A stretch of DNA of 64,000 bases, from assembly GCA_029262065.1 (NCBI GenBank), contig JAJDAC010000022.1:251982-315981 (forward strand), written 5' to 3'. This document shows positions 11,117 through 57,328 of this stretch, piece by piece (the stretch's first letter is position 1; each line of letters begins with the position of its first letter). The notes beneath the pieces are model-generated. The model was not told the origin of the DNA, did no database searches, and saw only the letters and a list, made by a program, of their open reading frames with translations. Source of the stretch: Candidatus Krumholzibacteriota bacterium. GTDB lineage: Bacteria; Krumholzibacteriota; Krumholzibacteriia; JAJRXK01. Made by a program: the position numbers and the translations under genes.

Positions 11117-11198
11117 GTTCCTACCCCTCGTGTATGCAGTGCAGGCGAGTCCCCACGATGCTACACCAAGGTTCCCGGGCGCGTCTTGATCGGAGAAT

Positions 11199-31516: not shown

Positions 31517-31671
31517 GGACGTAAGCCTGGTCATATCGGGTTTGGTAGGCGGACTTCGCAAGCGCGAAGTCCGCCTTTTCGTACCCTCCCCATTCTTTTC
31601 TCCGGAAGTGAATCACGGTGGAGTACTCTCGTGCCGTCAGCGTTCCCGCCATATCAAGTCCTAGGAGGGTC

Positions 31672-42800: not shown

Positions 42801-43327
42801 TAGGGACGGGCGGTATGGTCGTACCCAAGGGAAAGCCCGCGGTACTGGCCACGCTGACGCTCGAGGTTACCGACAACAATCCCGCGAGCCTGTCGCTCAC
42901 GTCTTCCTCGCTGGCCCAGGGCGCTTCGCCCATCGTGGCCCGCGGCGAAGAGCTTCAGAGCGTTGCCCTTTCCATGGGCGAAGGCATGCCGGTGGCGTAC
43001 GTGAACGACGAGCACGCTCCGCGCAACGACGGCCTGCCGGTTCCGGCTACGCTGTCGCTCAGCAACGTGCCCAATCCGTTCAATCCGTCCACCGAGATCC
43101 GTTTCAACCTGCCCCGCGATGGTCGGGCTGAGGTCCGGATCTACGATGTGAGTGGCCGTCTGGTAAGCCAGCTCGACGGAGGTCTCATGACCGCCGGCGC
43201 GAGCGCCCTTACCTGGAACGGTGTGGATCATCGGGGAGCTGGCGTACGCAGCGGCTTGTATTTCTACCAGCTGCTGCTCGACGGTCAGAGCCTCGGGGAT
43301 ACAAAGAAGATGAACCTGGTCAAATAG
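39836..43327 (+). CDS. Large secreted metzincin-like zinc protease with carboxypeptidase-regulatory-like and dockerin-like modules and C-terminal T9SS type-A sorting domain
   Basis: GGGGAGG ribosome-binding site. Signal peptide. Zinc motif HEFGHGINMAH plus a Met-turn (ETMYP), matrixin-like. TISGTIFNIDGTTPIGGVNVIARN (CarbopepD_reg-like). Two dockerin-like repeats (DIDANFTVNLADLGFFATDF / NGVLNLADVGVFATDF). C-terminal NVPNPFNPSTEIRFNL..VRIYDVSGRLV..GLYFYQL..KKMNLVK. Confidence 0.6.
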   Translation: MRNSSILRTAVLLTCLFASTAAFAGGPLILFAPNDPWNYPVGGVNVYTDLGGMGPLTNAQADVLSANGFAQWTGVASSFFNATVAGDFSSVGLPDITNANVATVIGVNNGGGFHVIYDTDGTITTGFLGAPPGVLGVASPDFGAGGILSESWAVMNGAAVNPGDPAGQSFGGVFTHEFGHGINMAHTQTNGQIVFFGNAITPAGCGGPYGGSPTFAQVETMYPFIDPSPGSVGVQMATIEHIDDVSTLSDIYPTGGWPAGTGTISGTIFNIDGTTPIGGVNVIARNVANAFTDAVSALSGDFTQSAADGAYTLTGLTPGANYVLYVDTIVDGGFSQTPVQPLPGPEEYYNAGESNTPVDDPCDFTTISVGAGATVTRDIQLNGANIPPTISVNPTSLSFTIPTNTNDNGLLTISNIAAAGADDLNWTIVDSDPVTTQIFPLPTDLPIGGGKAAVGRTITDDPTRMRCATCGKPRDTQPFDGDSGLAKMNLVNDGGFELGTGGPWIQSSTNFGTPLCDSTCGVAGANTGAWWCWFGGIAAFEDGAVRQSVVFPAGGTISLDFFVLPGACDSPADFVEVTIDGTQVWVLDGSSGLCGTATYSPVSVDLSAFADGAAHNVRFHSTIFANNAGGSNFFVDDVSITHTPTITDCAWLSAAPLAGTTAQGGSDNVTVTVDSTGLPVGVYNCSLQVNSDDPATPLVTVPVTLNVVASGVDVIVTTSTPLPVALKTLPSGSGDTFNAAQDWDGVVGSSPAAVDATVTVQLLQGGVPVVGHPANLMLVQVTSPGNWNGCNQNSPDGPTDVNGITTFSGALSAGGVTLPGAFMEVAVGGLTINSITYNGGATPLDIRVMSPDIDANFTVNLADLGFFATDFAGAYAFRSDFQWNGVLNLADVGVFATDFGDACTTIVPGNPTASGDMIGVYFDTAGRNHATDLEPGKAVTAYLMLQGPSASKGIDAWDAQLVTSSNLVVRNVVLPQGSINVGSDHEFVVGTGGMVVPKGKPAVLATLTLEVTDNNPASLSLTSSSLAQGASPIVARGEELQSVALSMGEGMPVAYVNDEHAPRNDGLPVPATLSLSNVPNPFNPSTEIRFNLPRDGRAEVRIYDVSGRLVSQLDGGLMTAGASALTWNGVDHRGAGVRSGLYFYQLLLDGQSLGDTKKMNLVK

Positions 43328-43455: not shown

Positions 43456-43494
43456 CGAGCCCCTCGATCCACCGATCGAGGGGCTCTTTTCTTG
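43456..43494 (+). terminator. Rho-independent terminator (GAGCCCCTCGATC-cacc-GATCGAGGGGCTC + TTTTCTT)
   Basis: 13-bp perfect stem followed by a T-rich tract, downstream of the tandem repeats. Confidence 0.7.
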
Positions 43495-43537: not shown

Positions 43538-44197
43538 CTACCCGAACCCCAGTACCGTCTTCCGACAGTAGAACGCCTCCGCGTAGCCCGACGCTGACCG
43601 ACACTCCATGCCCCTGAGCCGGGCCAGCGCCCGAAACGTCTCGGGCTCGAACCAGTCCTTGTTGCGCTGGGTCTGATACACCTTCATCAGAATAGCGATC
43701 TTGGCGTCCAATTGCTGACGCGTCACCGGCACGTAGGTACCTGGCTTTCCCAGGTCGCCGTCGTACTTGGGAATCTCGTATTCGAGAATCAGATGATCCC
43801 GAAACGTGTTCCACGTGAGCTCATTCACCAGACGGTGGTCCTGATGGGCGTCTTGTGAATAGTGGGTGAAGATCACGTCCGGCGAAGTACGCGCCTTGAG
43901 CGCCTCGAACTCACGCTTCACGTCGGCGTGTCGACTGGGAAGAAACCCATCCTCGAATTTCAGCGTTTCGATGTTCGTCGAGCTTGCCCCGGCCAGAAAC
44001 AGCGAGGCCGCTTGCTTGGCTTCAGAGCCGCGTTGGGAGTCTGACGTGAGAACCACCCAGTCCACGTGGACGGAGCCGTTCGCCTCCAGCAACGCCAACA
44101 GTGAACCCCCGGCCCCGATTTCGATGTCGTCTGCGTGCGCCCCCAGGCACAACACGCGAAGGGGACCCTGGGCCGCTGAAATACCAAGCCGCTGCAT
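43538..44197 (-). CDS. PIG-L/LmbE-family N-acetylglucosaminyl deacetylase
   Basis: Begins at the internal Met (MQRLGIS). VLCLGAHADDIEIGAGG (the PIG-L HxDD motif). ~219 aa. Last gene of the polysaccharide locus. Confidence 0.6.
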   Translation of the reverse strand: MQRLGISAAQGPLRVLCLGAHADDIEIGAGGSLLALLEANGSVHVDWVVLTSDSQRGSEAKQAASLFLAGASSTNIETLKFEDGFLPSRHADVKREFEALKARTSPDVIFTHYSQDAHQDHRLVNELTWNTFRDHLILEYEIPKYDGDLGKPGTYVPVTRQQLDAKIAILMKVYQTQRNKDWFEPETFRALARLRGMECRSASGYAEAFYCRKTVLGFG

Positions 44198-44202
44198 TGT
44201 TC

Positions 44203-44973
44203 CTACTTCCAGACCATCCAGGGAGTATCGCCGCGGGAATACATGTCTTCCAGATCCTGCCGGTCCTTGAAGGTGTCCATGCACTCCCAGAAACCGTCGT
44301 ACTCGTAGGTTACGAGTTCCCGCCGCGCGATCAAGCTCTGGAAGCCCTCTACCACCAAGTCGTCTTCGGCTCCCAGATGATCGAAAATCGAGGATTTCAG
44401 CACGAAGTAGCCGCAGTTGATGCGCAACGACCGGGACACGGGACGAATGTCCGTAACCAGGCCATCTGGCTGATTCTGAACGGCATGGAAGGTGGCCGTC
44501 GGGTGCACCGACACGAAACACGCCGTCTTGTCCTGTTTTCGCGCATAGTCTACATAGTCATCGAGGGGAAGGTCGGTCAACCCATCGCTGTAGTTGGCCA
44601 GAAACAACTCCTCGCCGTCCAGATGCTCGCGCACGGCCTGCAGACGCTGACCGATACTGGCGTTGGGCCCGGTGTCCACGAAGGTGATGTTCCAATCGCG
44701 CAGATCGTGAGACGCCAACTTCACGTTCGCTCCGTTGCCCGACATGACGAAATCGTTCGACATGCATTCGTTGTAGTTCAGGAAGAACTCCTTGATGGCA
44801 TCGCCGCGATACCCAAGGCAAAGCACGAAGTCAGTGTGGCCGTAGTGGGCGTAGTACTTCATGACGTGCCACAGAATGGGCAACTGACCAATGGGCACCA
44901 TGGGTTTGGGCAACGTATTCGAGTAGTCGCGCAGTCGCAATCCAAGACCACCGCAGAACAACACTACTTTCAT
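44203..44973 (-). CDS. rfbF: Glucose-1-phosphate cytidylyltransferase
   Basis: MKVVLFCGGLGLRLRDYSNTLPKPMVPIGQLPILWHVMKYY.. is the RfbF/DdhA signature. 256 aa. Confidence 0.85.
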   Translation of the reverse strand: MKVVLFCGGLGLRLRDYSNTLPKPMVPIGQLPILWHVMKYYAHYGHTDFVLCLGYRGDAIKEFFLNYNECMSNDFVMSGNGANVKLASHDLRDWNITFVDTGPNASIGQRLQAVREHLDGEELFLANYSDGLTDLPLDDYVDYARKQDKTACFVSVHPTATFHAVQNQPDGLVTDIRPVSRSLRINCGYFVLKSSIFDHLGAEDDLVVEGFQSLIARRELVTYEYDGFWECMDTFKDRQDLEDMYSRGDTPWMVWK

Positions 44974-44993
44974 CGCTCTTCGCTCCAGTTGGA

Positions 44994-46343
44994 TCAGTGC
45001 CGCCGCCGCATAGCCGGCTGTACGGGACGCCCATGAAGAAACTCGTGCACGTCGCCATCCAACGCTTCACGATACACCGCCAATGATGAATCAACCGCCT
45101 CGATGGTTCGGTCAATATCGTCGTCCGAATGCGAGTAGCTCACCACGAACGATGGGCCGAGAATGCCGCGACGAACCATCTGCTGCATGAACAGGGTGCG
45201 AAACAGCTGAGAGCGCTCACCCTGCGCGTCACACGTGGCGAACACGAGATTGCAATCGCGTCCCGACACCCAGAATGCCGATTCCAAGCCCCGTGCTCTC
45301 GCCACCTGTTCCACACCAAGGCGTAGACGCTGCCCCTGACGATGCAACCGCCCCACCACATCCTCGCTTTGGTATACATCGATGGTGGCCAGAGCCGCCG
45401 CCAGGCCCACACTTTCCGCCCCGTGTGTAGTCGATAGCAGAAACACACGCTCTCGGTCGTGATCGAAGCCACCCAGCTCCATGATGTGGCGCTTGCCGAC
45501 CAGAGCGGATATCGCGAAACCGTTACCCAGGCCCTTACCAAACGCCGACAGATCAGGATCCAGACCGTAGACCGCTTGTGCTCCGCCACGATGCCACCGG
45601 AACCCGGTAATCATCTCGTCCAGAATGAACACCGCGCCTTCACGACGGCATAGCTCCTGAACCCGCATCAGGAAGTTGTCGCCAGGAGGCGTCTCCCGTT
45701 CGGGTTCAAGGATTACGCAGGCCACCTGACCGGGGTTGGCCGCAAAGACTGCTTCGAGGCTGACGATATCGTTGTAGCGAAACGTCGCGGTAAGGTCGCG
45801 CGCCGCCGCGGGAATTCCCGCGTCCATGGGCGAGTGGCCAATGAACCAGTCGTTGTAGGAAAAGAACGGATGGTCGTGGCAGAACGCGACGAGTGGTCGC
45901 CCGGTATGCGCCCGCGCCAGGCGAATCGCGGCCGTGGTCACGGTGGAACCGTCCTTGGCGAACTTCACCTGCTCGGCACCGTCGATGAGCTCCAGGACCG
46001 CCTCGGCGCATTCCCCTTCCAGGGCCGCGGGACGAGTGTAGTTCGTGCCGTGGCTCAGCACCGCGGCCACGCGCTGGATAACCGGTTCATACGCGTGGCC
46101 CAACGTAACCGAGCGCAAACCCATGCCGTACTCGATGTATTCATTCCCGTCAGCGTCCCAGGCGTGACACCCATCGCCGCGTACGATCACGCCCGGGGCG
46201 TCCACGGGAAACTGGTCGTCGCCCTTGGCGTACGTGTGCGCGCCGCCGGGTATGAGCGCGCGGGCGCGCTGCCTGAGGCGCTCGCTCTCGTCGAGGACTC
46301 GCTTGTCGTCGCGATCGACCAAGTATCCTCCCACTCGTATCAA
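44994..46343 (-). CDS. Class-III (GSA aminomutase-like) PLP-dependent aminotransferase in sugar-modification context
   Basis: HemL-family architecture. ~449 aa. Embedded in a CDP-sugar locus. Confidence 0.65.
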   Translation of the reverse strand: MIRVGGYLVDRDDKRVLDESERLRQRARALIPGGAHTYAKGDDQFPVDAPGVIVRGDGCHAWDADGNEYIEYGMGLRSVTLGHAYEPVIQRVAAVLSHGTNYTRPAALEGECAEAVLELIDGAEQVKFAKDGSTVTTAAIRLARAHTGRPLVAFCHDHPFFSYNDWFIGHSPMDAGIPAAARDLTATFRYNDIVSLEAVFAANPGQVACVILEPERETPPGDNFLMRVQELCRREGAVFILDEMITGFRWHRGGAQAVYGLDPDLSAFGKGLGNGFAISALVGKRHIMELGGFDHDRERVFLLSTTHGAESVGLAAALATIDVYQSEDVVGRLHRQGQRLRLGVEQVARARGLESAFWVSGRDCNLVFATCDAQGERSQLFRTLFMQQMVRRGILGPSFVVSYSHSDDDIDRTIEAVDSSLAVYREALDGDVHEFLHGRPVQPAMRRRH

Positions 46344-47653
46344 ACGTCGAGCAGCAGGTCGTGCTGCACGAGGGTTTGGGCCACTTCGGCCAGAAGCTCT
46401 TCATCAAAACCAGAGCGCTCGGCAATGTCGGCCAGACAGTGCTTTCCATCGGAGTAGTTCAGCAACCACAACATCGCCCGCTCCTTGATGTTGGAGTCGC
46501 GATGCCCACCCCAGGCCGAGTAGAGCCCCCGGCGCCCCAACTGCGGCTCGCCACGGCCCAACGGGTTGCGGTAGCGAGGGGAAGAGTCGAACGCCACGAC
46601 CAGGCGAAGCAAAGCCTCGAGTGTTTCTTCCAACGACTCGCGCTGCACGAATGAAAGGTTGTCGAGTGAAGTGTGATACTCGGGGTAGGTTCCGTACGGC
46701 GTTCGGGACAGGCGCCCGACTGCGAGGTCAATGCCGGGGGATCCGTACTGGCGCTCATCGTAGCCGTCCGGCGTAAACGGAAGCACGCCGAAAGCAACAT
46801 TCATGTCCCGAAGCTGTCGCTCGATGAGCAGGTCCACCTCGGCCCCCGCCTGACGACTCTGCTTGTAGGTCAGCGGCCCTTTGTCACCCACGCCGGCCAC
46901 CACCAGCCCACCTCGGACCAATCCCAAGCGGGCCTCATTCTGGGCCAACCAGGTGAGAGCTCCAATGGTCCCCGGCGCGAACACAAAGCGGTACGAATAT
47001 TCCAACTTCATGTCGCGCAGCGCGCGCGCCAACTCGTGCAGGACCACCACGGCCGAAAGGTTGTCGTTTGCCAATGAAGGATGGCAGACGTGCGCCGAAA
47101 AAAGAAATTCGTCGTCGCGACGACCCTGAACCAAGCACTCTCCGTAGGTCAACGCTCCCTCTTCAAGCGAGCTGTCGATGCAAACCTCGTAGGTTTCGTC
47201 GGCCAACGACTCACGCTGATCGTGCGTCAGGCAGAATCCCCAGGCCTCGTGGTAGTACGATGTCTTGTACGGGATTGCTTGCGGCAGGCCTTCCAGGGAA
47301 TGCAGGTTGCCCTGCAATTCAGCCAGCGACATTTGCCGGCGCACCGGAATGCTATAGTTCACCACGTGCAGATTTGATTGCGTAAAGTCCACGACCTTCG
47401 CGCCATCGGCGCCCTTGATCCAGGCATCGCGAATATTCCACTCGCGCGGAACCGTCCAATCAAAGACCGGAGTACCCGTCGGCACCTCGGAAATTTCCAA
47501 CGGAAGGTCGGCCTGAAGGCCCCGCAATGTCTGTCGAACTCCGTCACCGGTTATGGAACGACACAGCGGATACAACCGTTTGATCAATTCGACCATTCGC
47601 TCACCGGCCGCATCGAGGTCGAAGGAATCCAGGGTATCGACGGGTAGTGTCAT
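46340..47653 (-). CDS. DUF4910-type aminopeptidase-like domain protein associated with sugar-modification loci
   Basis: Begins at MTLPVDTL; ATGA overlap with the upstream epimerase gene. M28/PA-like core (HPSLANDNLSAVVVLHEL). I recall this architecture co-occurring with class-III aminotransferases in polysaccharide clusters, but am not certain. Confidence 0.4.
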   Translation of the reverse strand: MTLPVDTLDSFDLDAAGERMVELIKRLYPLCRSITGDGVRQTLRGLQADLPLEISEVPTGTPVFDWTVPREWNIRDAWIKGADGAKVVDFTQSNLHVVNYSIPVRRQMSLAELQGNLHSLEGLPQAIPYKTSYYHEAWGFCLTHDQRESLADETYEVCIDSSLEEGALTYGECLVQGRRDDEFLFSAHVCHPSLANDNLSAVVVLHELARALRDMKLEYSYRFVFAPGTIGALTWLAQNEARLGLVRGGLVVAGVGDKGPLTYKQSRQAGAEVDLLIERQLRDMNVAFGVLPFTPDGYDERQYGSPGIDLAVGRLSRTPYGTYPEYHTSLDNLSFVQRESLEETLEALLRLVVAFDSSPRYRNPLGRGEPQLGRRGLYSAWGGHRDSNIKERAMLWLLNYSDGKHCLADIAERSGFDEELLAEVAQTLVQHDLLLDV

Positions 47654-48189
47654 GATCCGCTCGCGGAAAAATCGGGGTAGCCAGCATCGCGATCGGAGAT
47701 CACGCGTACCGAGGTTGGCCACTCGATGCCAAAGGCCGGGTCGTCGTAGCGCACGCCCTCAGCCACGTCAGGCGTGTAGAAATTGGACATTTGGTAGAAG
47801 ACCTCGACATCGTCTTCCAGCGTCAGGAATCCGTGGTGCACGCCGCTGGGAAGGTAGAACATCCGGCCATTCACCGCGGAAAGCTTGAAACCCTGGTGCC
47901 GCAGGTACGTGGGCGACTTGCGCCGAAGGTCAAGCGCCACGTCGAACATCGACCCTCGGGCACAACGCACCAACTTCGCTTCGCCGTGCGGCGCTCGTTG
48001 CCGATGCATGCCCCGCAACGTACCACGCTCCCGATTCGTGCTGATGTTGCACTGCGCAACAACCGCTTCCATCCCATGACTTTCAAATTCGCGTGCACAG
48101 AACGACCGTGCGAACGATCCCCGCTCGTCGACAAACGACTCCAACTCGATGAGGAAGGCCCCGTCGACCTGGGTGCGATGGAACTTCAC
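47650..48189 (-). CDS. dTDP-4-dehydrorhamnose 3,5-epimerase-like cupin (RfbC family; probably acting on a CDP-4-keto-6-deoxy sugar)
   Basis: Proposed GTG start (VKFHRTQVDGAFLIELESFVDERGSFARSF..) with a GAGGT ribosome-binding site. Rml-type double-stranded beta-helix motifs. The long ORF extension to 48297 would overlap the methyltransferase gene. Confidence 0.6.
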   Translation of the reverse strand: MKFHRTQVDGAFLIELESFVDERGSFARSFCAREFESHGMEAVVAQCNISTNRERGTLRGMHRQRAPHGEAKLVRCARGSMFDVALDLRRKSPTYLRHQGFKLSAVNGRMFYLPSGVHHGFLTLEDDVEVFYQMSNFYTPDVAEGVRYDDPAFGIEWPTSVRVISDRDAGYPDFSASGS

Positions 48190-48199
48190 GGCCTGGACC

Positions 48200-49471
48200 T
48201 CACGACGAACCTTTCGCAAGTACTTGGACCTCGGGAATGGGAACCACGAACTGGCCACCCCAATCGTACACGTGCGCGTTGAGCCGTACGATCTCATCCT
48301 TGATGTTCCACGGCAGAATCAAGACATAGTCGGGTTTGGTCTGCGCCAGGTGGTCGGGCGAGAAGATGGGGATGTGGGTGCCCGGCAGGTACCGGCCCTG
48401 CTTGTAGGGACTGCGGTCCACGGTGTACTGGAGGAGATCGGTCCGTATGCCACAGTAGTTCAGCAACGTGTTGCCCTTGCCCGGCGCACCGTAGCCAGCC
48501 ACCGACTTGCCACGCTTTCGCGCATCGATCAGGAACTCCAGGAGAGCATGCTTGGTGGCATCGGTCTTTTCCTGAAACCGTGTGTAGCGCGCGATGTCGC
48601 CAAACCCCTGGGACTTCTCACGGGCCAGAAGCTCCCGAGCCCGTTCGGTCTCCGGCTTGGTTGCGTCGTCATCGTGACAACCGAAAACGCGCAAGGATCC
48701 TCCGTGCGTCGGCACTTCCTCGACATCGAACAACCGTATCCCGTGCGCCGCGAAGATACGGGCCACCGTGATGAAGGAGAAATAGGAGAAGTGTTCATGA
48801 TATATGGTATCGAACTGGTTCTCCTCGATCAGACGCAGCAGATGAGGAAACTCCAACGTAACAACACCTTGCTCGTTCAAAAGCACCTTGAAGCCGGCCA
48901 CGAAATCGTTGAGGTCGTGTACCTGGGCCAAAACATTGTTGGCAATGATCAGGTCGGCCATCTTGCCATCGTCGGCCATACGCCGCGCACTGCCGCGCCC
49001 GAAGAACTCGACACGGGTCGGTACGCCTTTTTCCACCGCCACCTTGGCCACGTTGGCCGCCGGTTCCACACCCATGACTGGCACGCCATGGTTCGCAAAG
49101 TGCTGCAGCAGGTACCCATCGTTACTGGCGACTTCAACCGCTAGACTGTCAGCTCCCAGCCCCAGGCGCTCGGTGATCATTGCAACGTAGCGAGCGCAGT
49201 GATCAACCCACGAATCCGAGTACGACGAAAAGTAGGCGTACTCGGTGAAGATGTCTTCCACGGCCACGTATTCGTCCAACTGGACCAAAAAGCACTCGTG
49301 ACACACCCGGACCCATAGCGGGTAGAACGCTTCCATTCGGTTGAGATTCTCGGCCGCCACATAGCTTTCGCACAGCGGAGACATACCCAGATCCACGAAC
49401 GTGTGCTCGAGCGGCGTGAAGCAGAAACGGCATTCCCCGGGTTGCGGTGCACGGTCAGACATGGGAAGCAC
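48200..49471 (-). CDS. NDP-hexose C-methyltransferase (TylC3-like; N-terminal Zn-ribbon + SAM MTase + C-methyltransferase C-terminal domain)
   Basis: CRFC...CHEC zinc-ribbon. SAM-binding [10 protein letters not shown]. The C-terminal domain is typical of sugar C-methyltransferases. Confidence 0.6.
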
Positions 49472-50489
49472 TCCAGCTCAGGTCGCTCTGGAGCAATCCG
49501 TCCTCCAGGAGTTGACGAATGTGGGCGATCCGATTGTAGCGGGGACCCTCGAACTCATCGATGGTCAGGCCAAATTTTTCATAGGCCCCAACCAACTGAT
49601 CCACTCCCTTGCGAGCGTTCCACTCCGGTTGAAACGCCGGCACATGCTCGAAGATCTTGGAGCTATCCACCTTGTAGTTACGCGAGTCTGGCCCGGCCTC
49701 GGCCGCAAACGACACCTCGCACTCGGGTAGACGCTCATGGACCAATCTGGCGAGATCTCGAATCTGATAGTTCTCACCCGGAGGCGCGACGTTGAACGCA
49801 TGATCGTGCACGGCCTCCTTGGGCGACTCGAGCACGGCAATGAACGCCGCCGCCATATCCAATACGTGGATGATCGGACGCCAAGGGGACCCGTCGCTTT
49901 TCAACAGAATCTTCCCCGAAGTGAATCCCCAGGCGGTCAGGTTGTTCAAAACAATATCGAATCGATGACGTGGCGATACGCCGTAGGCGGTGGCGAAGCG
50001 CAAGTATGTAGGCGAGAACTGTTCGCCGGCAAGCTGGGCCAGGTCACGTTCGGCCAAGACCTTTGATTCGGCGTAGGGCGTCACCGGCTTCAACTCGCAA
50101 TTCTCGCGGGCGGGTTCGTCCCCTTGTGCGCCGTAGTTGCTACATGAAGAAGTGAAGACGAATCTCTCAACCCCCGCTTCGCGAGCCAATGTTCCCAGAC
50201 GAACGGTGGCCCGATGATTGATCTCGAAAGTGAGGTCGGGGTTCAGATCGCCCAACGGGTCGTTCGACAACGCGGCTAGATGCAACACCGCGTCGTAGCC
50301 TTGCAGATCGTCGACGGTGGCGTTTCGAATATCGAGAATCTTCTCGCGAACCTCGGGCATAGAGGGACCATAGGTGCAGCGGCGATACAGGTCCGTATCC
50401 ATACCGGTCACCTCGTGGCCGGCCGCCATCAACTGGGACACCAGCACGGAACCCACGTAACCCTTGTGGCCAGTCACCAATGTCTTCAA
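49455..50489 (-). CDS. NAD-dependent epimerase/dehydratase (extended SDR)
   Basis: [17 protein letters not shown] (Rossmann GxxGxxG). Catalytic SSCS...YAESK (YxxxK). 344 aa. Confidence 0.75.
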
Positions 50490-51481
50490 CGAACACCACC
50501 TTCATTCGAATCTTCAAAGTTCATGATCTCGTGGGAAGAACCGTCGGCCGCGTATGGTTCCGCGCCGGGCGCCAATACTCCCCGCTTCGCGTCCTTGCGT
50601 GCTTCGGCGATTTGACCCAATACCCTTGCAACGAGCAGGCGTTGGTAGAACCGCTCCTCGCGATCGAAAGTGAATTGCCATTTGGCGATGCGTTCGATCA
50701 ACAGACGTACCAGGTAGCGTGGGATTCCAAAAAAGGAAACATCGCGCGGATACGGCTTCCGCCGCATCAGGAAGCGGCCGTAGTTGAAATACCAATTGCG
50801 CAGATAGTCAGGGTGCAACTTCTGGGTTTCGATGGGGTGAAAGACCACGGCCTCTGGCTCGTAGAGCAACGTCGCCCCGGCATCCATCATACGAGCCGAC
50901 AACTCGGTATCTTCGCCTCGGCCCATGGGGTTGTTGCCCGTGGGGCCCAGGTCGGTCCGAAACGTACCGTACTTCTCGATCGCCGTTCGGCGAAACGCCA
51001 TGTTGGCGCCGAAGGGCGACCGATTCAGCCTTACCCGGTCGGGGCCCAGATCGAACCGGAACGGAAAGAAACGGGCCTGCTTGAGCCAGGCCAGGCCACC
51101 GTCTTCGAATACCGGCAGGATCTTGCCGCCGGCTCCCGCGCAGTCGGTAGTGGCAAACGTGTTCCATAGGGCCTGGATCCACCCGGGTCCCAGTCCCACA
51201 TCGTCGTCGGTAAACAGAAGTATGTCGCCCGCCGCCATCTCGATGCCCCGGTTCAAGGCGAACGATTTTCCGATACGCTCTTCGAGTGCATAACCCACAC
51301 GGCCGCCGGTTTCCTCGGCGAATTCTTGGACCACTTGCGGTGTCGAGTCGCTGGATCCGTTGTCCACCACCACGACTTCCCAGCTCAGGTCGTCGGAAAC
51401 TTCTTGATTCAGCAACGAACGCAAAACGTTCGCCAGGCGCTGGCTACGATCACGGGTGCAGATGATGATGGTGATGTCCAT
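50486..51481 (-). CDS. Family-2 glycosyltransferase
   Basis: [12 protein letters not shown]...[10 protein letters not shown]... LFTDDD is a GT-A fold DxD-containing GT2. Confidence 0.7.
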
Positions 51482-51502
51482 GATGCTGAGCGTTCTGCCA
51501 GG

Positions 51503-52726
51503 CTAGGCTCCGGGGGTCTCCATTGGAGAAGCAGGCGCCGCCCCGTGTCGGACGGTCACTTTGGGTTTGCAGTTCGCCACGCCACGCACCTCAACGCCGG
51601 TATTCACGTAGACCGTGGCGGCTGGATTCATCGTATCGAACACATACTCGGTACCGTAGTTGTAGACGGTTATCTCAATGTCGTAGGCACCGTTCGCCAA
51701 ATTCAGATCGAGTTGAAAGGAACAGCTATAGGTGCTTCCCGACCGCAGGGAAAATGGCTCCTCGCCGAGTCTTTCGGTGGAAGTGTTGAACACGTTGTAA
51801 CCACTGCGATCCAGCATATCCAGCACCACCGCGAGACCTTCGCAATCAGCCAGACCCTCAAGCTCCACATCGATCCATGCACGTTCTCCGCTGTCGAACC
51901 GCATGTTCGCGCCGTCTTCGCCACGCAGTGAAACTGACACGATGCGTGCCTTGTGCCCCTCCCGATTCCGTGATGCGTAGGAAAGCCCCATGTAGGATTG
52001 GATGACTTCCTCAATGGGCCCAATCGACATCATCTGACCACGGTCGAGCAATAGGCTTCGGCCACAAAGGTCAGCCACGGCCTGCAGGTTGTGCGACACG
52101 AACACCACCGTCGTTCCGTTCTGGATCACAGTGTTCATGCGATCGAGGCACTTCTTCTGAAACATGTGATCGCCTACGCTCAGCACCTCGTCCACTACCA
52201 GAATCTCGGCGTCGACGTGCGCGGCCACCGCAAAACCAAGTCGCGCGTACATTCCGCTGGAATAGCGCTTCACCGGCGTATCGATGAAGTCACTGAGCCC
52301 AGAGAACTCCACGATTTCGTCGAAACGCAGTTCGATCTCGCGCCTGGCCATGCCCAGGATGGTCCCGTTCAGGTAGATGTTTTCTCGACCAGTCAGGTCG
52401 GGATGAAAACCCGCCCCGACTTCGATCAACGCCGACAAACTGCCGTTGACGTCGATCGTTCCCTTCGTGGGACGCATGATGCCACTCAACAGTTTCAAGA
52501 TCGTGCTCTTGCCCGCGCCGTTGTGACCGACGATTCCGAATGCCTCACCACGCGTGATCTCGAAAGAGATTTCCTTCAGCGCCCAGAACTCTCGCGACTC
52601 AAGATTCCCGGTGCGACGCAGGAATCGGCCAGTCAGCGCAGGCAGCAGGTCACGCAGCGAATCGTGGATCTCGCCCCGCTTGAACTTCTTATGAACATCG
52701 TCGAATGTGAGCACTACGTCGGACAA
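51503..52726 (-). CDS. wzt: ABC transporter ATP-binding protein for polysaccharide export (Wzt/TagH-like with C-terminal carbohydrate-binding extension)
   Basis: Walker A GHNGAGKST, signature YSSGMYARLGFA, Walker B ILVVDE. A ~150-aa C-terminal beta-rich extension follows. Confidence 0.85.
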   Translation of the reverse strand: MSDVVLTFDDVHKKFKRGEIHDSLRDLLPALTGRFLRRTGNLESREFWALKEISFEITRGEAFGIVGHNGAGKSTILKLLSGIMRPTKGTIDVNGSLSALIEVGAGFHPDLTGRENIYLNGTILGMARREIELRFDEIVEFSGLSDFIDTPVKRYSSGMYARLGFAVAAHVDAEILVVDEVLSVGDHMFQKKCLDRMNTVIQNGTTVVFVSHNLQAVADLCGRSLLLDRGQMMSIGPIEEVIQSYMGLSYASRNREGHKARIVSVSLRGEDGANMRFDSGERAWIDVELEGLADCEGLAVVLDMLDRSGYNVFNTSTERLGEEPFSLRSGSTYSCSFQLDLNLANGAYDIEITVYNYGTEYVFDTMNPAATVYVNTGVEVRGVANCKPKVTVRHGAAPASPMETPGA

Positions 52727-52755
52727 CTGATTCCCCTCGCCCCTCGCGTTGCTTT

Positions 52756-53541
52756 CTAGATGCTTTCGGCGAACATCGGCTCCGCCTTCTTGAAGAACGA
52801 ATATCCGGCGGTAAGCAAGATCACCGATACTGCCGCGCTATATCCAACCCACAGAAAATCGGGCGATTCGTGAAGCACCACGGTGTCGTTGAGACCCTCG
52901 AGAATCGGCGCCACGGGGTTGAGTAGAAGCACCGTGCCCCACTTACCGAACATCTCAACCTCGTAGAACACTGGCGTGAAGAAAATCGCGAACGTCAGGA
53001 CCACTTCGGTAAGATACTTCACGTCCCGGAAGAACAAACTGGCGGCGGACAAGACGGTGCCCAGCCCAACCGTGAACAACACCAACAGAGCAATGAGCAA
53101 TGGCGCCCACAACACCTGCAGCGACAGGCCAACGCCCGACACGAGCAAGATCACGGTCAGCGCGACGGAAGCCACGAGGAAATCGATGAGTTGCGACGCG
53201 ACCGACGCCACGGGAAAGATCTCCTTGGGAAACGATATCTTTGTCACCAGGTTTGTGTTGGCGATGAGGCTGTTGGTGGCGAACCGCAGGGCGGAAACAA
53301 AGAACGCCCACGGCACCGCCTTGACTGAGATGGTGGCTACTTCGCTGAGCAAGAAGGGCTTCTGCGCCACGTGAGCCATGGCGTACTTCACCAGAATGCC
53401 CGCCGCCACGATGATCAATGGCATGAAGATGGCCCACAGGAAGCCCATCATTGACTGCTTGTACTTGATGCGTACTTCACGCCACGTGATCATGTACAGC
53501 AGCTCACGGTAGCGAAAGAGGGTTTTCAGGTGCTCCAGCAT
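52756..53541 (-). CDS. wzm: ABC-2 type polysaccharide export permease (Wzm/TagG-like)
   Basis: 261 aa, 6 transmembrane helices. N-terminus LFRYRELLYMITWREVRIKYKQSMMGFLWAI typical of Wzm. Confidence 0.8.
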   Translation of the reverse strand: MLEHLKTLFRYRELLYMITWREVRIKYKQSMMGFLWAIFMPLIIVAAGILVKYAMAHVAQKPFLLSEVATISVKAVPWAFFVSALRFATNSLIANTNLVTKISFPKEIFPVASVASQLIDFLVASVALTVILLVSGVGLSLQVLWAPLLIALLVLFTVGLGTVLSAASLFFRDVKYLTEVVLTFAIFFTPVFYEVEMFGKWGTVLLLNPVAPILEGLNDTVVLHESPDFLWVGYSAAVSVILLTAGYSFFKKAEPMFAESI

Positions 53542-53558
53542 GTGCCTCTACTGGCCGC

Positions 53559-54530
53559 TTACGCGGCTAGCTTTCCGCGCATCCGGCGCAGCGTCGACGC
53601 GGGGTTACCAGCCAGGTTGGCCACGGCGCGACCAGCGCAGCCCAACTTCCGGCGCCAGTCCCATTCGATCTCCATCTCTTTCATGCCCGATTCATGGTAG
53701 TCCCAGAATTCCTTCGAACGCCGCGACAGCAACGCCTCGCCAAGATAGGCCCAGTACCGACCACCCAGTTCGCGCGCACGACGGTCGCACTCGTGCGGCT
53801 CGAGGGCCCAGCTGCCGTACTCGTGGAGCAGTACAAGTTCGTGGAGCAGATACGGGTTGAATGACTCGAACGCGGAGGTGATCGATGCGTTGTCCACTCG
53901 GACGTAGGTCAAGACCCGATGAACGAAGCCAAAGTCACTTTCTTTCAACAGCTCGTAGCACACCTTCGTGTCTTCCAGAAGACTCTCTTCGGAGTAGAAC
54001 CTCGGTCGCGCGCGAACCAGGTCACTGCGGTACATGACCGTGGAGGGTGAACCGAACACCGACATGGAATGAAGCAGGTGCCGACGGCAAGCCGTCCGGC
54101 CCGAAACTACCGCCTCTTCAAAGGCAAGACCCTGTGCGCCCACCCTTCGGCCGCGCAGGAGATATGCTCCTACCAGACCCACGGCGGGGTTTGCGTCGGC
54201 GAGAGTGGCCATGGCGTCGAGGCACTCGGGCATCATCCAGTCGTCGGCCTGGATTACCTTGCAGTACCGACTCTCGTCGGATATCGACGCCATCGCTCGG
54301 TTGTAGTTGGGCACCTGGGCCAGGAACTCTTCGTGCCTGACGTGACGGATTCGACTGTCGCGCCTGGAGTACTCGGCGGCAATATCGCTGGTTCCATCGG
54401 TACTGCGATTGTCGGCAATGATGTATTCCCACTGGGTGTGGGTCTGCGCCAGTACGCTGTCGATACACTCGGCCAGCGAATCGGCCGTGTTGTAGACAGG
54501 CGTGACGATGCTCACGAATGACTGGCTCAT
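53559..54530 (-). CDS. Family-2 glycosyltransferase (first gene of polysaccharide operon)
   Basis: Proposed start MSQSFVSIVTPVYNTADSLAECIDSVLAQTH...YIIADNRSTDGT, typical of GT2. The ORF could extend to 54602. Confidence 0.65.
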   Translation of the reverse strand: MSQSFVSIVTPVYNTADSLAECIDSVLAQTHTQWEYIIADNRSTDGTSDIAAEYSRRDSRIRHVRHEEFLAQVPNYNRAMASISDESRYCKVIQADDWMMPECLDAMATLADANPAVGLVGAYLLRGRRVGAQGLAFEEAVVSGRTACRRHLLHSMSVFGSPSTVMYRSDLVRARPRFYSEESLLEDTKVCYELLKESDFGFVHRVLTYVRVDNASITSAFESFNPYLLHELVLLHEYGSWALEPHECDRRARELGGRYWAYLGEALLSRRSKEFWDYHESGMKEMEIEWDWRRKLGCAGRAVANLAGNPASTLRRMRGKLAA

Positions 54531-54689
54531 CTGCCCTTTTTTGCTTCGAAGGTTATGCATTCCCGCATGGGTCCATGATCCCATCTGCGACATCCGTACC
54601 ACTCGGGCTGGAAGCGGTCAATACACTGGCCGCCGAGGACGCGTTCGCGTTTCACACCCAATCCGCACCAATTCCCATAACCGTGGCCT

Positions 54690-54745
54690 CGGTACCGAAA
54701 ACGAACGCATGTTATTGAATTAAAACAACTTAATGGATCTTTCCT
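54690..54745 (-). promoter_or_regulatory. AT-rich putative promoter of the 11-gene polysaccharide operon, with ~170-nt leader
   Basis: AT-rich island (ttattgaattaaaacaacttaatgg) upstream of the first minus-strand gene. All genes from 54530 down to 43538 are co-directional with gaps of 30 bp or less. Confidence 0.3.
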
Positions 54746-57218
54746 AGCGCCGGCCCATGAGAATCCAGGGAGCCCACTTGTCCGGAGCGGACCATCGCGG
54801 GTCGTGCCGCAGAAAGAGCTTCGCCTTGCGCAGTGCCTGGGCGTACTCGCGCTGCGCAAATTCTGGCGCCAGCATCGCCCGCCTCAGCACCTCCTCGGCG
54901 GCATCATCGACCGCTTCGGACACGGGCAGCACCACGCGCTGGGTTCCCGCCGAGAGAAAGGCATGGGCGACCTCCAGGCCCTGGACGCCGGCCTGGGGCC
55001 ACGATAACCAGGCCAACGCGGCCTCCTGGCTCAACTGGGTCAACTCGAACGCACTCAGGTGGCCGTTGTCCTCTTCGTGTCCTGATCCCGGCGACAGTTT
55101 CAACGCGGGCCCCTGGGCGCCCTGGGACGGGCTCACGCGAGTTGCCACGTGAAGTAGCTCGACCCTCCCCAGCAGCTGCCGCAGTTCTCCCTCGGTGGCG
55201 TTCCTGCCCGTGAGTTCGGCCACGCGCACGCCCCGCAGCGACGTGGTGAACACGTGGCTCTGCCTCTGACTGGACGGCCAGGTGTTTTCTTCCCCAGGGA
55301 GCGCGGGCGCGCTCAGGGTAACCATTACACCGGATGGGGGCTCCACCTCGGACTGGGCGAGAATTGCCAGCATGGCCACGGACGGGGCGTACCGAACCGT
55401 TGGCCCAGAGTCCAACCAATACACCGGATCAGGAGCGTTGACCGAACCCGTGATCAGGGTCTCGAAGGGAAATCCCACCAGTACGGAGTGAGGCACCACG
55501 ATCACGTGCGCCTTCTCGGCCAGCGTGGGCCGCACTGTTTCGGGCACCAGAATTTCCCAGAGGGCGTGTCCGCGCGCGAGCGGTTGATCCTCGAGGGTGG
55601 GCGCCTCCAGCCAGCCGCGCAACCCGTCACGCCCCACTCCGAGCGAGCGAGCGAGCTTGCCCGTGCGGTCGACAGCTTCGAGCTCTACGGCTTCGAGTGG
55701 ACGATCCGCGGTGGCGACGAACACGAAGCTACGATCACGACCCACGTGGTACTGCAGAAGGGATTCGTCGTCCCACAGGTGCAGAGATGGATTCAGGGAC
55801 ACTAGCCTGGGGTGTTTCCAGAGCACGGTTTCCTCGAAGCGCCGCACGTCGGCTCGCGCAAGCCGCCAGGCCTGCCACGTCGCGTCGATCGAACCTGTAT
55901 CGATTTGCCGAATGTCGTCGCGAACCGCGAGTGCACGCGCGTTTCGCTCACGGTTGATCGCCTCGGCGTGGCGCGGGTTGCGTGCAGGCAATTTCAGCGG
56001 TCGCAGCCAGGCCTGAAAGCACTCCGCCACGAACATTGCCTCGGTCGGAGTGTCCGCATCGACATTCCAGGCCACCAGGTCATCGGCCAATGCCGCCACG
56101 TGATGGGGCCACTCGAGTTCACTCGCGCGACGGGGACACCCGGCCGCGGGTATTTCTTCGCGCATGGCCCACGCAGCCCGAGCGTCGTCCAGCCCCTGCT
56201 CACGTTTTCCTTGCGCGTCGAAGCGCCGAGCGCGGGTCATCAGCGCCACCGCCAGGTTCGTCGCGAAGCGGGGGTGCGACGCGAAGATCTCTATTTCAGT
56301 ATCGAGTCCCGCCGGGCCCAATTGCGACCGTGGACCAGCGAGTCGGGCCAGAACCAGACGGAGCCGAGCACAATCAGGATCCCGGAACCCCAGACTGGAT
56401 TCGAACCGCGCCAGTATCGGTCGCAGCGAATCGACCGCGGCGACGGCCAGGCCAGCCCGCAGGGCCGCCACGGCCCGATCGGCGTGGGCGCGTACCAGCC
56501 AACGCAACGGGACACCGCCATTGCCCGCGGCCAGCAATGCCTCACTCCACCAACGGTGAGCATCCCGCCACTGTCCGCCACTGGCCTCCAGCATCGCCCT
56601 CTCGTGGTTCCACTCGAACCGGGAGGTCAGGTCGTCGGGGTCCAGAACGATCGATTCGAGTACGGAACGCGCCGGGTCAAGCCGGCCTTCCGCGCGCAGC
56701 GCGCGGGCCACACCCAGACGGGCGCGTGAACGAGCCAAGTCTGACGAGTCCATGGAAACGATCGATTCGTACGCTTCGCGCGCCGGGACGTACAGGCCGC
56801 GAAACACGAGGAGTTGGGCCAGCTGATCGAGCCAGTTCGCGAGTTCGGTAGTCTGATCGACCGACCGCGACGGTTGCGACTGCACGATCCCCACGGCCAC
56901 CTCGTACGCCGCGGAGGCATCCTCGAGCCGACGCTGTGCGTCGGTCAGCTGAGCCAGGCGAGCCCAGGCGGCAGCCACTTCGAACGCACCCTCGCCGAAC
57001 TGCTCGCGCGCGACTTCGATCGCCATCTGGGCCTGGTCCAGCCCGGAGATCCGTTGACGGGGAGTGGACGGCGATGCTTCCGAGGGGCCCGAACGCAGGC
57101 TGACCGGGCCGGCGGTAGGAGCCGGTTGCGCCGGCGGCGCTGGCTCACGTGCGCATGCCGCCAGAGCCACCACCAGGAGCACGAGACAGCCGCAAATGTA
57201 GGAGCACCGAATATTCAT
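54744..57218 (-). CDS. Exported TPR-repeat protein with C-terminal CHAT-like domain lacking the catalytic His/Cys (predicted pseudo-protease)
   Basis: Internal start with lipobox (MNIRCSYICGCLVLLVVALAACA). Long TPR-like N-terminal region. The C-terminal domain aligns with the CHAT domain of the 8729-11116 protein, but LHFATHA becomes LHVATRV (His to Arg) and LSACRT becomes LSWPQA (Cys to Pro). Confidence 0.5.
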   Translation of the reverse strand: MNIRCSYICGCLVLLVVALAACAREPAPPAQPAPTAGPVSLRSGPSEASPSTPRQRISGLDQAQMAIEVAREQFGEGAFEVAAAWARLAQLTDAQRRLEDASAAYEVAVGIVQSQPSRSVDQTTELANWLDQLAQLLVFRGLYVPAREAYESIVSMDSSDLARSRARLGVARALRAEGRLDPARSVLESIVLDPDDLTSRFEWNHERAMLEASGGQWRDAHRWWSEALLAAGNGGVPLRWLVRAHADRAVAALRAGLAVAAVDSLRPILARFESSLGFRDPDCARLRLVLARLAGPRSQLGPAGLDTEIEIFASHPRFATNLAVALMTRARRFDAQGKREQGLDDARAAWAMREEIPAAGCPRRASELEWPHHVAALADDLVAWNVDADTPTEAMFVAECFQAWLRPLKLPARNPRHAEAINRERNARALAVRDDIRQIDTGSIDATWQAWRLARADVRRFEETVLWKHPRLVSLNPSLHLWDDESLLQYHVGRDRSFVFVATADRPLEAVELEAVDRTGKLARSLGVGRDGLRGWLEAPTLEDQPLARGHALWEILVPETVRPTLAEKAHVIVVPHSVLVGFPFETLITGSVNAPDPVYWLDSGPTVRYAPSVAMLAILAQSEVEPPSGVMVTLSAPALPGEENTWPSSQRQSHVFTTSLRGVRVAELTGRNATEGELRQLLGRVELLHVATRVSPSQGAQGPALKLSPGSGHEEDNGHLSAFELTQLSQEAALAWLSWPQAGVQGLEVAHAFLSAGTQRVVLPVSEAVDDAAEEVLRRAMLAPEFAQREYAQALRKAKLFLRHDPRWSAPDKWAPWILMGRR

Positions 57219-57252
57219 TGAGGACCACCTGCGCGGCCACTCTATCGCAACG

Positions 57253-57268
57253 TTCATTCGACGTCGAA
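57253..57268. promoter_or_regulatory. 16-bp perfect palindrome CATTCGACGTCGAATG upstream of the CHAT-like gene
   Basis: Located ~35-50 bp upstream of the proposed start codon at 57218; candidate operator. Confidence 0.3.
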
Positions 57269-57293
57269 TGATCCACGGCCGAAGTGGGAAAAG

Positions 57294-57328
57294 AGAAGAG
57301 CCCGACCCCAAAAAGGGTCGGGCTCTTC
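57294..57328 (-). terminator. Rho-independent terminator of paralog A (14-bp stem GAAGAGCCCGACCC)
   Basis: GAAGAGCCCGACCC-caaaaa-GGGTCGGGCTCTTC. On the minus strand the hairpin is followed by TCTTTTCCC. Confidence 0.7.

Follow-up and report, generated by a model that had tools for sequence, protein, structure and literature searches.

An operon with a Wzm/Wzt exporter and a DUF4910 sugar module in Candidatus Krumholzibacteriota, predicted to supply a C-methyl-branched amino sugar

Which sugar is made by an operon that combines a glycan exporter with a sugar C-methyltransferase, an RmlC-like epimerase, a DUF4910 protein and a class-III aminotransferase, and in which no cytidine diphosphate (CDP)-glucose 4,6-dehydratase can be recognised? 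The question is raised by a DNA stretch of 64,000 nucleotides from Candidatus Krumholzibacteriota bacterium (assembly GCA_029262065.1, contig JAJDAC010000022.1, positions 251,982 to 315,981 of the forward strand), called the window throughout. According to the initial annotation, which was made from the sequence alone, the locus is an ATP-binding cassette (ABC)-transporter-dependent polysaccharide locus predicted to build a C-methyl-branched, amino-modified CDP-sugar by chemistry that is likely non-standard. The open reading frames (ORFs) of the window were assigned to families with Pfam and NCBIfam profiles, using equivalog cutoffs as curated, and were compared with related loci from other genomes. 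These analyses point to a surface glycan that would be exported by Wzm/Wzt and carry a C-methyl-branched amino sugar supplied by a "DUF4910 module", a model to which we assign a probability of about 0.5. The product is most likely a nucleoside diphosphate (NDP)-activated, probably CDP-activated, 4-amino-4-deoxy-3-C-methyl-hexose retaining its 6-OH.

An operon containing a widespread seven-gene module

Eleven ORFs, all on the minus strand, span positions 43538-54602 with intergenic distances from -17 (overlap) to +29 nt, and this cluster is one real operon. The co-directional, tightly packed arrangement seen in the initial annotation, with no spacing above 29 nt, was therefore confirmed, as was the family or domain call for each of the 11 genes in Pfam and NCBIfam searches. 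In order of transcription, the features are:

53559..54602, minus strand: GT2a, family-2 glycosyltransferase (GT2), first gene of the operon; PF00535, 1e-25; start possibly at 54530
52756..53541, minus strand: Wzm, ABC-2 permease of the glycan exporter; PF01061 (ABC2_membrane), 7e-14
51503..52726, minus strand: Wzt, ABC ATPase with C-terminal carbohydrate-binding domain; ABC_tran and Wzt_C
50486..51481, minus strand: GT2b, second family-2 glycosyltransferase; PF00535, 6e-29
49455..50489, minus strand: extended short-chain dehydrogenase/reductase (SDR), Cj1427-like clade; Epimerase family, 3e-46
48200..49471, minus strand: S-adenosylmethionine-dependent C-methyltransferase, TylC3/MtmC type; PF08421 and PF08484
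47650..48189, minus strand: RmlC-like cupin epimerase; PF00908, 3e-59; start at about 48189
46340..47653, minus strand: DUF4910/DUF2172/HTH_47 protein; 6e-96
44994..46343, minus strand: class-III (PRK06209-type) aminotransferase; 2.5e-34; start at about 46322 in the source annotation
44203..44973, minus strand: RfbF-like sugar-1-phosphate nucleotidyltransferase; TIGR02623, below cutoff
43538..44197, minus strand: PIG-L/LmbE-family zinc hydrolase; PF02585, 1.5e-16
43457..43486, no strand assigned: GC-rich hairpin, likely terminator; 13-bp stem including 9 G-C pairs, then a T-run on the plus strand

The PIG-L gene starts at 44197, short of the maximal ORF extension at 44521. The stop of the RmlC-like gene overlaps the DUF4910 start, and in an independent assembly the gene call is 179 aa long. 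A scan for sigma-70 promoters yielded nothing in the operon. The hairpin is located between the last operon gene and a convergent gene of 1163 aa and is probably a terminator shared by both.

A comparison set of 80 loci (L001-L080), anchored on DUF4910, was taken from species-representative genomes of more than 10 phyla, and each ORF of these loci was scored against the window proteins and recurrent neighbours. A C-methyltransferase is present in 67 of them, RmlC in 63, an SDR of the window type in 59, and a nucleotidyltransferase in 64; RmlC directly adjoins DUF4910 in 35 of its 63 loci. The sugar genes of the window are one instance of a widespread seven-gene module with DUF4910 as its invariant core and hallmark, and are not unique to the window. 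Its carriers include cyanobacteria, actinomycetes, acidobacteria, verrucomicrobia, anammox planctomycetes, and rhizobia. At first, DUF4910 and the class-III aminotransferase had been regarded as a special pair, a view that has to be given up: DUF4910 is universal, while the aminotransferase is optional (23 of 80 loci) and alternates with ketoreductases.

As its gene neighbourhood has been in the literature since 2014, the locus cannot be called categorically new. Das et al. 2014 (PMC4000134) described the DUF4910 (CA_C2195) family as embedded in carbohydrate loci, and the neighbours listed in their supplement comprise a nucleotidyltransferase, an SDR, a C-methyltransferase, RfbC, a PIG-L-type deacetylase, a "GSA aminomutase" (GSA, glutamate-1-semialdehyde), and sometimes Wzm/Wzt, in neighbourhoods from Streptomyces ipomoeae, Chroococcidiopsis, Kuenenia, and Haliscomenobacter. 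They proposed only "a role in modified carbohydrate biosynthesis", assigned no pathway, and termed the SDR a dehydratase. The window DUF4910 protein is a member of this family (3k9t, the CA_C2195 crystal structure, is matched with 433 bits over residues 39-457) and has the same neighbour genes. The earlier study did not distinguish two nucleotidyltransferase variants or the alternation between aminotransferase and reductase, and the structural prototype CA_C2195 itself is located in a nonulosonic-acid/flagellin-type context, outside such a module. Literature searches on DUF4910 returned nothing beyond this paper, and nothing was retrieved for C-methyltransferase with GSA aminomutase, aminopeptidase-like protein with C-methyltransferase, vinelose, or CDP-glucose with C-methyltransferase.

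Judged by profile scores, the module lies outside every characterised pathway: the nucleotidyltransferase, the SDR and the aminotransferase fall below the RfbF, RfbG and HemL equivalog cutoffs, respectively, and two enzymes have no assigned reaction. The expectation of non-standard chemistry was well founded.

The proposed 4-keto intermediate and its further conversion

That no RfbG is recognisable in the locus was noted at the outset, with the reservation that the SDR might fill the role of the 4,6-dehydratase. The SDR reached only 29.3 bits on the RfbG model TIGR02622 (cutoff 278.45), which confirms that no RfbG is recognisable, and no 4,6-dehydratase and no further nucleotide-sugar gene were detected when all large ORFs of the window were scanned. 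The SDR does seem to occupy the 4-keto-forming slot, but by profile it is of the Cj1427 type and has no acid/base Asp/Glu pair. With a profile built from 24 members of the SDR family, Cj1427 (6vo6) was matched at 7e-50 and 173 bits, the second-best match being 1.8e-29 and 4,6-dehydratases scoring at most 85 bits; partial matches of the SDR to RmlD and Fcl were weak. Identity to Cj1427 is about 30%. Invariant residues are S114-x-C116-S117-x-Y119-G120, within the motif S-S-C-S-N-Y-G, and Y139xxxK143, and Cys116-Ser117 stand at the dehydratase acid/base positions. Both the closest relative and the YxxxK motif are those of a Cj1427-type C4-dehydrogenase.

Cj1427 is a C4-dehydrogenase with a ping-pong mechanism, in which the tightly bound NADH is re-oxidised by 2-oxoglutarate to give L-2-hydroxyglutarate; the RmlC-like epimerase Cj1430 and the C4 reductase Cj1428 follow in the pathway (PMC10680097). 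Genes for the FAD enzyme L-2-hydroxyglutarate oxidase (NF008726) were found embedded in 7 of the 80 modules, at the following positions:

L022:137-1345
L025:4620-5828
L033:11134-12516
L034:15349-16548
L052:3605-4804
L061:11179-12489
L076:12974-14263

On the equivalog model (cutoff 299) the seven proteins scored 587, 568, 531, 317, 315, 315, and 296 bits. They form two sequence groups, are spread over several phyla, and accompany both nucleotidyltransferase variants. All seven loci carry the window-type SDR and none carries RfbG. For this single-copy housekeeping enzyme, a rough estimate of the chance expectation is about 0.4 loci, far fewer than the seven observed. We infer that the embedded oxidases recycle the by-product of the SDR; on that reading no 4,6-dehydratase would be needed and the sugar would keep its 6-OH. 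True RfbG occurs in 5 sister loci (493 bits in L053), and the window-type SDR is absent from 4 of the 5, indicating that RfbG and SDR occupy one slot. The SDR is probably a Cj1427-type NDP-hexose C4-dehydrogenase and not a 4,6-dehydratase, and the sugar is probably not 6-deoxy.

The classical 6-deoxy route is the alternative that fares best. It would make the SDR an unorthodox CDP-hexose 4,6-dehydratase using Cys116/Ser117, and the product would be CDP-4-amino-4,6-dideoxy-3-C-methyl-L-hexose, a kansosamine-like sugar obtained by RmlA-D-like logic with C-methylation and transamination added. The invariant Cys beside the catalytic Ser could indeed act as acid/base and support such a dehydration, which counts against a dehydrogenase, and in four sister loci the slot is held by true RfbG. 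No characterised TylC3-family enzyme is known to act on anything but a 4-keto-6-deoxy sugar, and the CDP-cereose/cillose pathway reportedly opens with RfbF and a 4,6-dehydratase. A deoxygenated residue, the 174 Da "dimethyl-deoxyhexose" of the Kuenenia S-layer (PMC5088730), would fit as well. However, the Asp/Glu pair is missing from the SDR, dehydratases score far below Cj1427 on its family profile, and a self-recycling dehydratase would leave the repeated recruitment of L-2-hydroxyglutarate oxidase unexplained. The 6-deoxy route is therefore considered unlikely.

Three further enzymes would act on the 4-keto sugar. The methyltransferase contains the Methyltransf_13 zinc ribbon (1e-22), Methyltransf_23 (5e-12), and Methyltransf_14 (2e-66), the domains of TylC3/TcaB9-type enzymes. 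The nearest solved proteins are the 3-C-methyltransferases MtmC (4rv9, 287 bits), KijD1 (5t64, 256 bits), and TcaB9 (3ndi, 219 bits). Its alignment with MtmC is full-length (2.8e-84), with YHEH conserved and Cys14, 17, 57, and 60 of the zinc ribbon present. By these features it is a genuine sugar C-methyltransferase with Zn-ribbon, as initially proposed; a check for an O- or N-methyltransferase was negative. The RmlC-like cupin scored 155.9 bits on TIGR01221, barely above the cutoff of 155.75, and its nucleotide specificity is therefore probably different; it would act at C-5 and/or C-3 of the 4-keto sugar.

The DUF4910 protein shows the three-domain architecture of CA_C2195, with DUF4910, the DUF2172 insert, and HTH_47. 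In 3k9t, a single Zn is bound by His189, Asp195, and His324 within an M28-like fold, with Ser and Pro in place of the catalytic Asp and Glu. The corresponding residues of the window protein, H191, D197, and H327 as zinc ligands and S193 and P227 at the M28 catalytic positions, are invariant in the alignment of the family, which has more than 8000 homologues with 55-66% identity across phyla. A function as peptidase was rejected, since with one zinc site only and the catalytic Asp/Glu replaced the protein is not an M28 metallopeptidase, a type of enzyme with two zinc sites and five ligands. A function as surrogate 4,6-dehydratase was rejected too, because DUF4910 is retained in the RfbG-bearing loci L024, L029, L053, and L067. 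As a speculation, retro-aldol/aldol or ketol-type chemistry would be plausible for a mono-zinc site that faces an alpha-hydroxy-ketone.

DUF4910 often adjoins the aminotransferase or an adh_short reductase. Three loci (L021, L023, and L015) have only the C-methyltransferase, DUF4910, and adh_short as a minimal trio, with nucleotidyltransferase, SDR, and RmlC not nearby, which shows that DUF4910 is most tightly linked in function to the methyltransferase and the terminal enzyme. Two families without any Pfam or NCBIfam match, c15 (e.g. L016:7198-8136) and c16 (e.g. L008:5039-6145), are found in 12 module loci each, c15 usually with RmlC on one side and the terminal aminotransferase or reductase on the other.

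The aminotransferase of the window scored 676 bits on NF004856 (PRK06209; cutoff 486) and 207.3 bits on the hemL model TIGR00713 (cutoff 527.3), and its lysine is located in an FGKGLGNG motif. The initial annotation had considered a genuine HemL misplaced in the locus, and this is not what was found: besides the low hemL score, the gene lies within the module in the 23 loci mentioned above, and 3 of 4 loci on long contigs that were anchored on aminotransferase homologues contain the module. The family has more than 8000 close homologues and is named "glutamate-1-semialdehyde 2,1-aminomutase" by NCBI and JGI, which is probably a systematic misannotation, its members residing mostly in DUF4910 sugar modules. 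Solved GenB-type C-6' aminotransferases, also of class III, are matched with about 100 bits. These aminoglycoside enzymes are likewise GSA-aminomutase-like, pyridoxal phosphate-dependent proteins aminating sugar carbonyls, although they act on C-6' aldehydes of pseudo-oligosaccharides and not on NDP-keto-sugars. With this precedent, a class-III aminotransferase acting on a carbohydrate is not unprecedented.

The terminal enzymes of the 80 loci comprise the aminotransferase (23), an adh_short ketoreductase (21), and a second extended SDR (13). The aminotransferase never occurs together with either ketoreductase (0/23; Fisher p = 2.4e-7), and both reductases are combined only in L043; as a point to the disadvantage of the model, the Fisher tests used here and below treat the 80 loci as independent though they are phylogenetically related. 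Within the Nostocales, the module contains the aminotransferase in Nostoc carneum (L031), adh_short in Calothrix (L040), and the second SDR in N. punctiforme (L006). Since the terminal enzymes interchange within single lineages, the exclusivity is not simply phylogenetic. Between aminotransferase and reductase loci, no group-specific residues were detected in C-methyltransferase, RmlC, DUF4910, or SDR, and for these four core enzymes sequence identity is the same across the two groups as inside each; applied to the two nucleotidyltransferase classes described below, the same residue-difference test did reveal differences. The core enzymes being indifferent to the terminal enzyme, amination or reduction would come last. 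An aminotransferase acting before C-methylation was accordingly disfavoured. The simplest reading is a shared keto intermediate, most simply the C-4 ketone, which would be reduced in some organisms and transaminated here.

An order of steps like that for vancosamine or kijanose was also considered. DUF4910 would then be a zinc-dependent analogue of 2,3-dehydratases, amination at C-3 would precede C-methylation, and a 3-amino-3-C-methyl deoxy sugar would result. Such an order would give DUF4910 a role next to its frequent neighbours, the aminotransferase and adh_short, and would fit the deoxy sugar of Kuenenia. An aminotransferase/ketoreductase switch at C-3 is known to separate the mycarose pathway from those of vancosamine and kijanose, and MtmC, KijD1, and TcaB9, the closest relatives of the C-methyltransferase, act in such pathways. 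But an early amination is hard to reconcile with the absence of residue or identity differences in C-methyltransferase, RmlC, and DUF4910 between aminotransferase and reductase loci, and DUF4910 does not resemble the sugar 2,3-dehydratases of the Nudix type, which makes this order doubtful.

It appears similarly improbable that the SDR is a late 4-ketoreductase/epimerase, with the dehydratase encoded elsewhere and the aminotransferase acting on another carbonyl, e.g. at C-6 or on a branch aldehyde. Locus L038 contains RfbG and the window-type SDR and no other reductase; this would fit a 4-reductase there and speaks against a C4-dehydrogenase. The use of aldehydes by the GenB-type enzymes and the weak RmlD and Fcl matches of the SDR point in the same direction. 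Most loci, however, including the window and the compact L039, L022, and L052, contain no dehydratase, not even within the whole 64 kb in the case of the window, and the alternation of the aminotransferase with ketoreductases implies a common ketone substrate. That the aminotransferase is a true HemL and DUF4910 a peptidase, both being passengers outside the sugar pathway, is highly improbable, for it agrees with the database name and with one homologue (P0137) in an unrelated context, but not with the hemL score, the translational coupling of the two genes in the window, their presence in modules of many phyla, or the loss of M28 catalytic residues and second zinc site in DUF4910.

Entry into the module and probable export of the glycan

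The RfbF-like protein had been taken to indicate a CDP-hexose pathway. Its place in the RfbF-like family is secure, with 183 bits to Salmonella RfbF (1tzf), but it scored 223.6 bits on TIGR02623, below the equivalog cutoff of 300.25. Among the 80 loci, 53 have a nucleotidyltransferase of the window type, with 224-235 bits also below the cutoff, while 11 have bona fide RfbF with 380-468 bits. PIG-L is present in 50 of the 53 loci of the former class and in none of the 11 of the latter (Fisher p = 2.6e-18, 5e-6), and in almost all loci it is located immediately downstream of the window-type gene. In 1TZF numbering, the nucleotide/phosphate residues R15, K25, R111, and D131 are kept in both classes, and N188 and D236 are also conserved in the window protein. 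The pair E178-K179 is shared by all 12 true RfbF proteins compared and variable across the 53, being Ile-Arg for the window in the pairwise alignment, and 8 further class-specific positions separate the two classes. Glu178-Lys179 is presumably a pair in the sugar pocket. The SDR is the sole downstream enzyme that diverges between the two nucleotidyltransferase classes.

Taken together, the "RfbF" of the window is probably a diverged paralogue coupled to PIG-L, with altered sugar specificity. The score below the cutoff and the loss of the Glu-Lys pair mean that a start from CDP-glucose is not established, and the starting sugar-1-phosphate is probably other than glucose-1-phosphate. Our guess is a GlcNAc-type substrate that is later de-N-acetylated by PIG-L. 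With 61.5 bits on PF02585 and the metal motifs AHADD and HQDH, PIG-L is a member of the PIG-L/LmbE family; it is presumed to be a de-N-acetylase and the obligatory partner of the RfbF-like gene. The pair of nucleotidyltransferase and PIG-L is predicted to define a second entry route into the module.

The exporter belongs, by its domains, to the ordinary Wzm/Wzt class with a carbohydrate-binding domain, in line with the proposed ABC-transporter-type glycan locus. The ABC-2 permease, the ABC ATPase, and Wzt_C of a terminus-recognising exporter are all present. Wzt_C was detected with 56.3 bits (cutoff 30.4) at residues of about 257-381. The best solved relative is full-length Wzt of Aquifex aeolicus (8dku, 253 bits), an O-antigen transporter subunit, aligned through residue 355, and the C-terminal domain alone matched the A. 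aeolicus carbohydrate-binding domain 6o14 with 2e-8, a match that bears on the comparison with modules binding O-antigen termini proposed at the outset. In known systems, these domains recognise the capped end of the chain. Wzm partially matched the galactan Wzm/RfbD model, and its close orthologues (305-338 bits) adjoin the module in L028, L043, L063, and L074. The ABC-2 permease and the C-terminal Wzt_C are shared with WzmWzt of A. aeolicus and with the E. coli O9a type, but the window operon contains no WbdD-like terminator and no initiating or ligating enzyme. An ORF scan of the window likewise revealed no initiating phosphoglycosyltransferase, ligase, polymerase, or chain terminator; these may be encoded elsewhere in the genome.

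Wzm/Wzt was found in 13 sister loci, the seven with examined gene maps having Wzt proteins of 403-491 aa, and Wzx-type flippases are used by 12 others. As both kinds of loci carry the module, it is independent of the export route. Orthologues of GT2a (220-301 bits) occur in L011, L027, L032, L050, L072, and L074, with either export route, and GT2a is the best candidate for a dedicated transferase of the special sugar. GT2b gave only partial NCBIfam matches, all below cutoff, to HpsE, MftF, and AglG-type GT2s. The closest orthologues of exporter and GT2a are from metagenome-assembled genomes of Longimicrobiales, Acidobacteriaceae, and Zixibacteria.

Predicted pathway, its relatives, and its setting

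The proposed pathway would begin with activation of a hexose-1-phosphate by the RfbF-like nucleotidyltransferase, whose family is clear and whose product is predicted to be an NDP-sugar, probably with CDP. The Cj1427-like SDR would then oxidise C-4, its bound NADH being re-oxidised by 2-oxoglutarate to L-2-hydroxyglutarate. The methyltransferase, of evident TylC3/MtmC type, would methylate C-3 beside the keto group, the RmlC-like cupin would epimerise C-5, and the mono-zinc DUF4910 protein would carry out a further step on the alpha-hydroxy-ketone. The class-III aminotransferase would aminate the remaining ketone, most simply at C-4, where sister loci would use a ketoreductase. Finally, GT2a would transfer the sugar, possibly as a terminal cap read by the carbohydrate-binding domain of Wzt, the glycan being assembled on the cytoplasmic face and then exported by Wzm/Wzt. 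Gene families, operon structure, and patterns of co-occurrence are observed; regiochemistry, nucleotide base, and the order of methylation, epimerisation, and the DUF4910 step are predictions.

Several points weigh against this scheme. The similarity to RfbF is the sole pointer to the base, cytosine or another; the role given to PIG-L is a guess, and DUF4910 has no defined role. The window itself contains no L-2-hydroxyglutarate oxidase, and the coupling to 2-oxoglutarate is derived from an identity of about 30% and from the seven oxidase loci. About a quarter of the well-covered loci lack a separate terminal enzyme, whether reductase or aminotransferase; MtmC is bifunctional, and in such loci reduction may also be carried out by the SDR or by the MtmC-like methyltransferase.

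In comparison with known routes, the module resembles a hybrid of the heptose route of Campylobacter jejuni (Cj1427/Cj1430/Cj1428) and branched-sugar routes of the TylC3 type. With the guanosine diphosphate (GDP)-heptose route it would share oxidation at C-4 without dehydration, RmlC-like epimerisation, and a finish at C-4. Cj1427 is the only close solved relative of the window SDR; Cj1430 is a C3/C5-epimerase and Cj1428 a C4-reductase. The window route would differ in using CDP and not GDP and a hexose and not a heptose, in the addition of C-methylation, DUF4910, and PIG-L, and in ending with transamination instead of reduction. A CDP-activated 3-C-methyl hexose, a TylC3-family methyltransferase, and a surface glycan would also be common to the cereose pathway of Bacillus cereus. 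The cereose operon reportedly consists of four genes, including a canonical CDP-glucose 4,6-dehydratase and a 4-reductase, and unlike the window is not known to contain RmlC, DUF4910, PIG-L, or an aminotransferase. A B. cereus pathway to CDP-cereose and CDP-cillose is cited in PMC7725333; both products are CDP-3-C-methyl-6-deoxyhexoses. Enzymes of the same C-methyltransferase family (TylC3, MtmC, EvaC, KijD1, and TcaB9; 219-287 bits) act in the pathways of dTDP-L-mycarose, L-epivancosamine, and D-kijanose, which likewise combine a C-methyltransferase with a 5-epimerase and a reductase or aminotransferase. In contrast to the window, these pathways lead to dTDP-linked 2,6-dideoxy antibiotic sugars and employ RmlB-type and Nudix 2,3-dehydratases and DegT-class aminotransferases.

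A possible module product may already have been seen in Kuenenia. The S-layer O-glycan contains a residue of 174.09 Da, described as "dimethyl-deoxyhexose", near the non-reducing end (PMC5088730), and kuste2590-2597 of Kuenenia stuttgartiensis are arranged as RfbF-SDR-CMT-RmlC-DUF4910-FabG-Wzm-Wzt, CMT being the C-methyltransferase (PMC4000134 supplement). In the Kuenenia genome, the true-RfbF variant of the module was observed next to Wzm/Wzt and methyltransferases. The mass corresponds to a C-methyl, O-methyl deoxyhexose, however, and should this residue be the module product, a deoxygenation step outside the preferred model would follow, which is a further point against that model. In two loci, an aminotransferase-containing module adjoins a gene for an acyl carrier protein, in L084:1-3019 together with an AMP-ligase and an acyltransferase and in L082:1524-4537 together with MBOAT, a hint at N-acylation of the amino sugar in some organisms.

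The GC content is 0.576-0.584 over positions 48001-54000, from the C-methyltransferase to GT2a, and 0.60-0.645 across most of the window. This dip over the central operon genes is mild compositional evidence and suggests partial horizontal acquisition. The remaining genes of the window encode secreted proteins, TPR/CHAT proteins, peptidases, RF3, and PL14-like proteins. Large proteins with TPR and CHAT (caspase-like) domains are encoded on the minus strand directly upstream of the operon (54744-57311) and at 8729-11581. Just upstream of the operon, three tandem paralogues with PKD-like and polysaccharide-lyase-14-like domains are located at 57357-59180, 59413-61389, and 62428-63996 (minus strand). 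Large proteins of the secreted type with Kelch, BACON-like, and CarboxypepD_reg domains are encoded at 39836-43327 (plus), 31618-32634 (plus), and 32762-34840 (minus); they share a FlgD_ig-like/Por_Secre_tail-like C-terminal domain, which suggests a common C-terminal sorting signal.

With this model, the locus is turned into a testable pathway, in which the 4-keto enzyme and its co-substrate as well as the terminal step are proposed and DUF4910 is the single unexplained step. The module is a common "known unknown" of bacterial surface-glycan loci, with a crystal structure of DUF4910 at hand since 2009-2014. Tentatively, it could specify an undescribed class of sugars, 3-C-methyl hexoses, here 4-aminated and possibly 2-aminated, that would be formed with a 2-oxoglutarate-coupled C4-dehydrogenase and a new zinc reaction of DUF4910 and be recognised by Wzt as a cap. 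If the predictions hold, glycobiology would gain a branched amino sugar and an enzyme reaction that are both new, and the ping-pong mechanism of Cj1427 would extend far beyond Campylobacter. If true, with DUF4910 and aminotransferase families of more than 8000 homologues each in more than 10 phyla, the product of the module would represent a major constituent of surface glycans in bacteria that has so far gone unrecognised.

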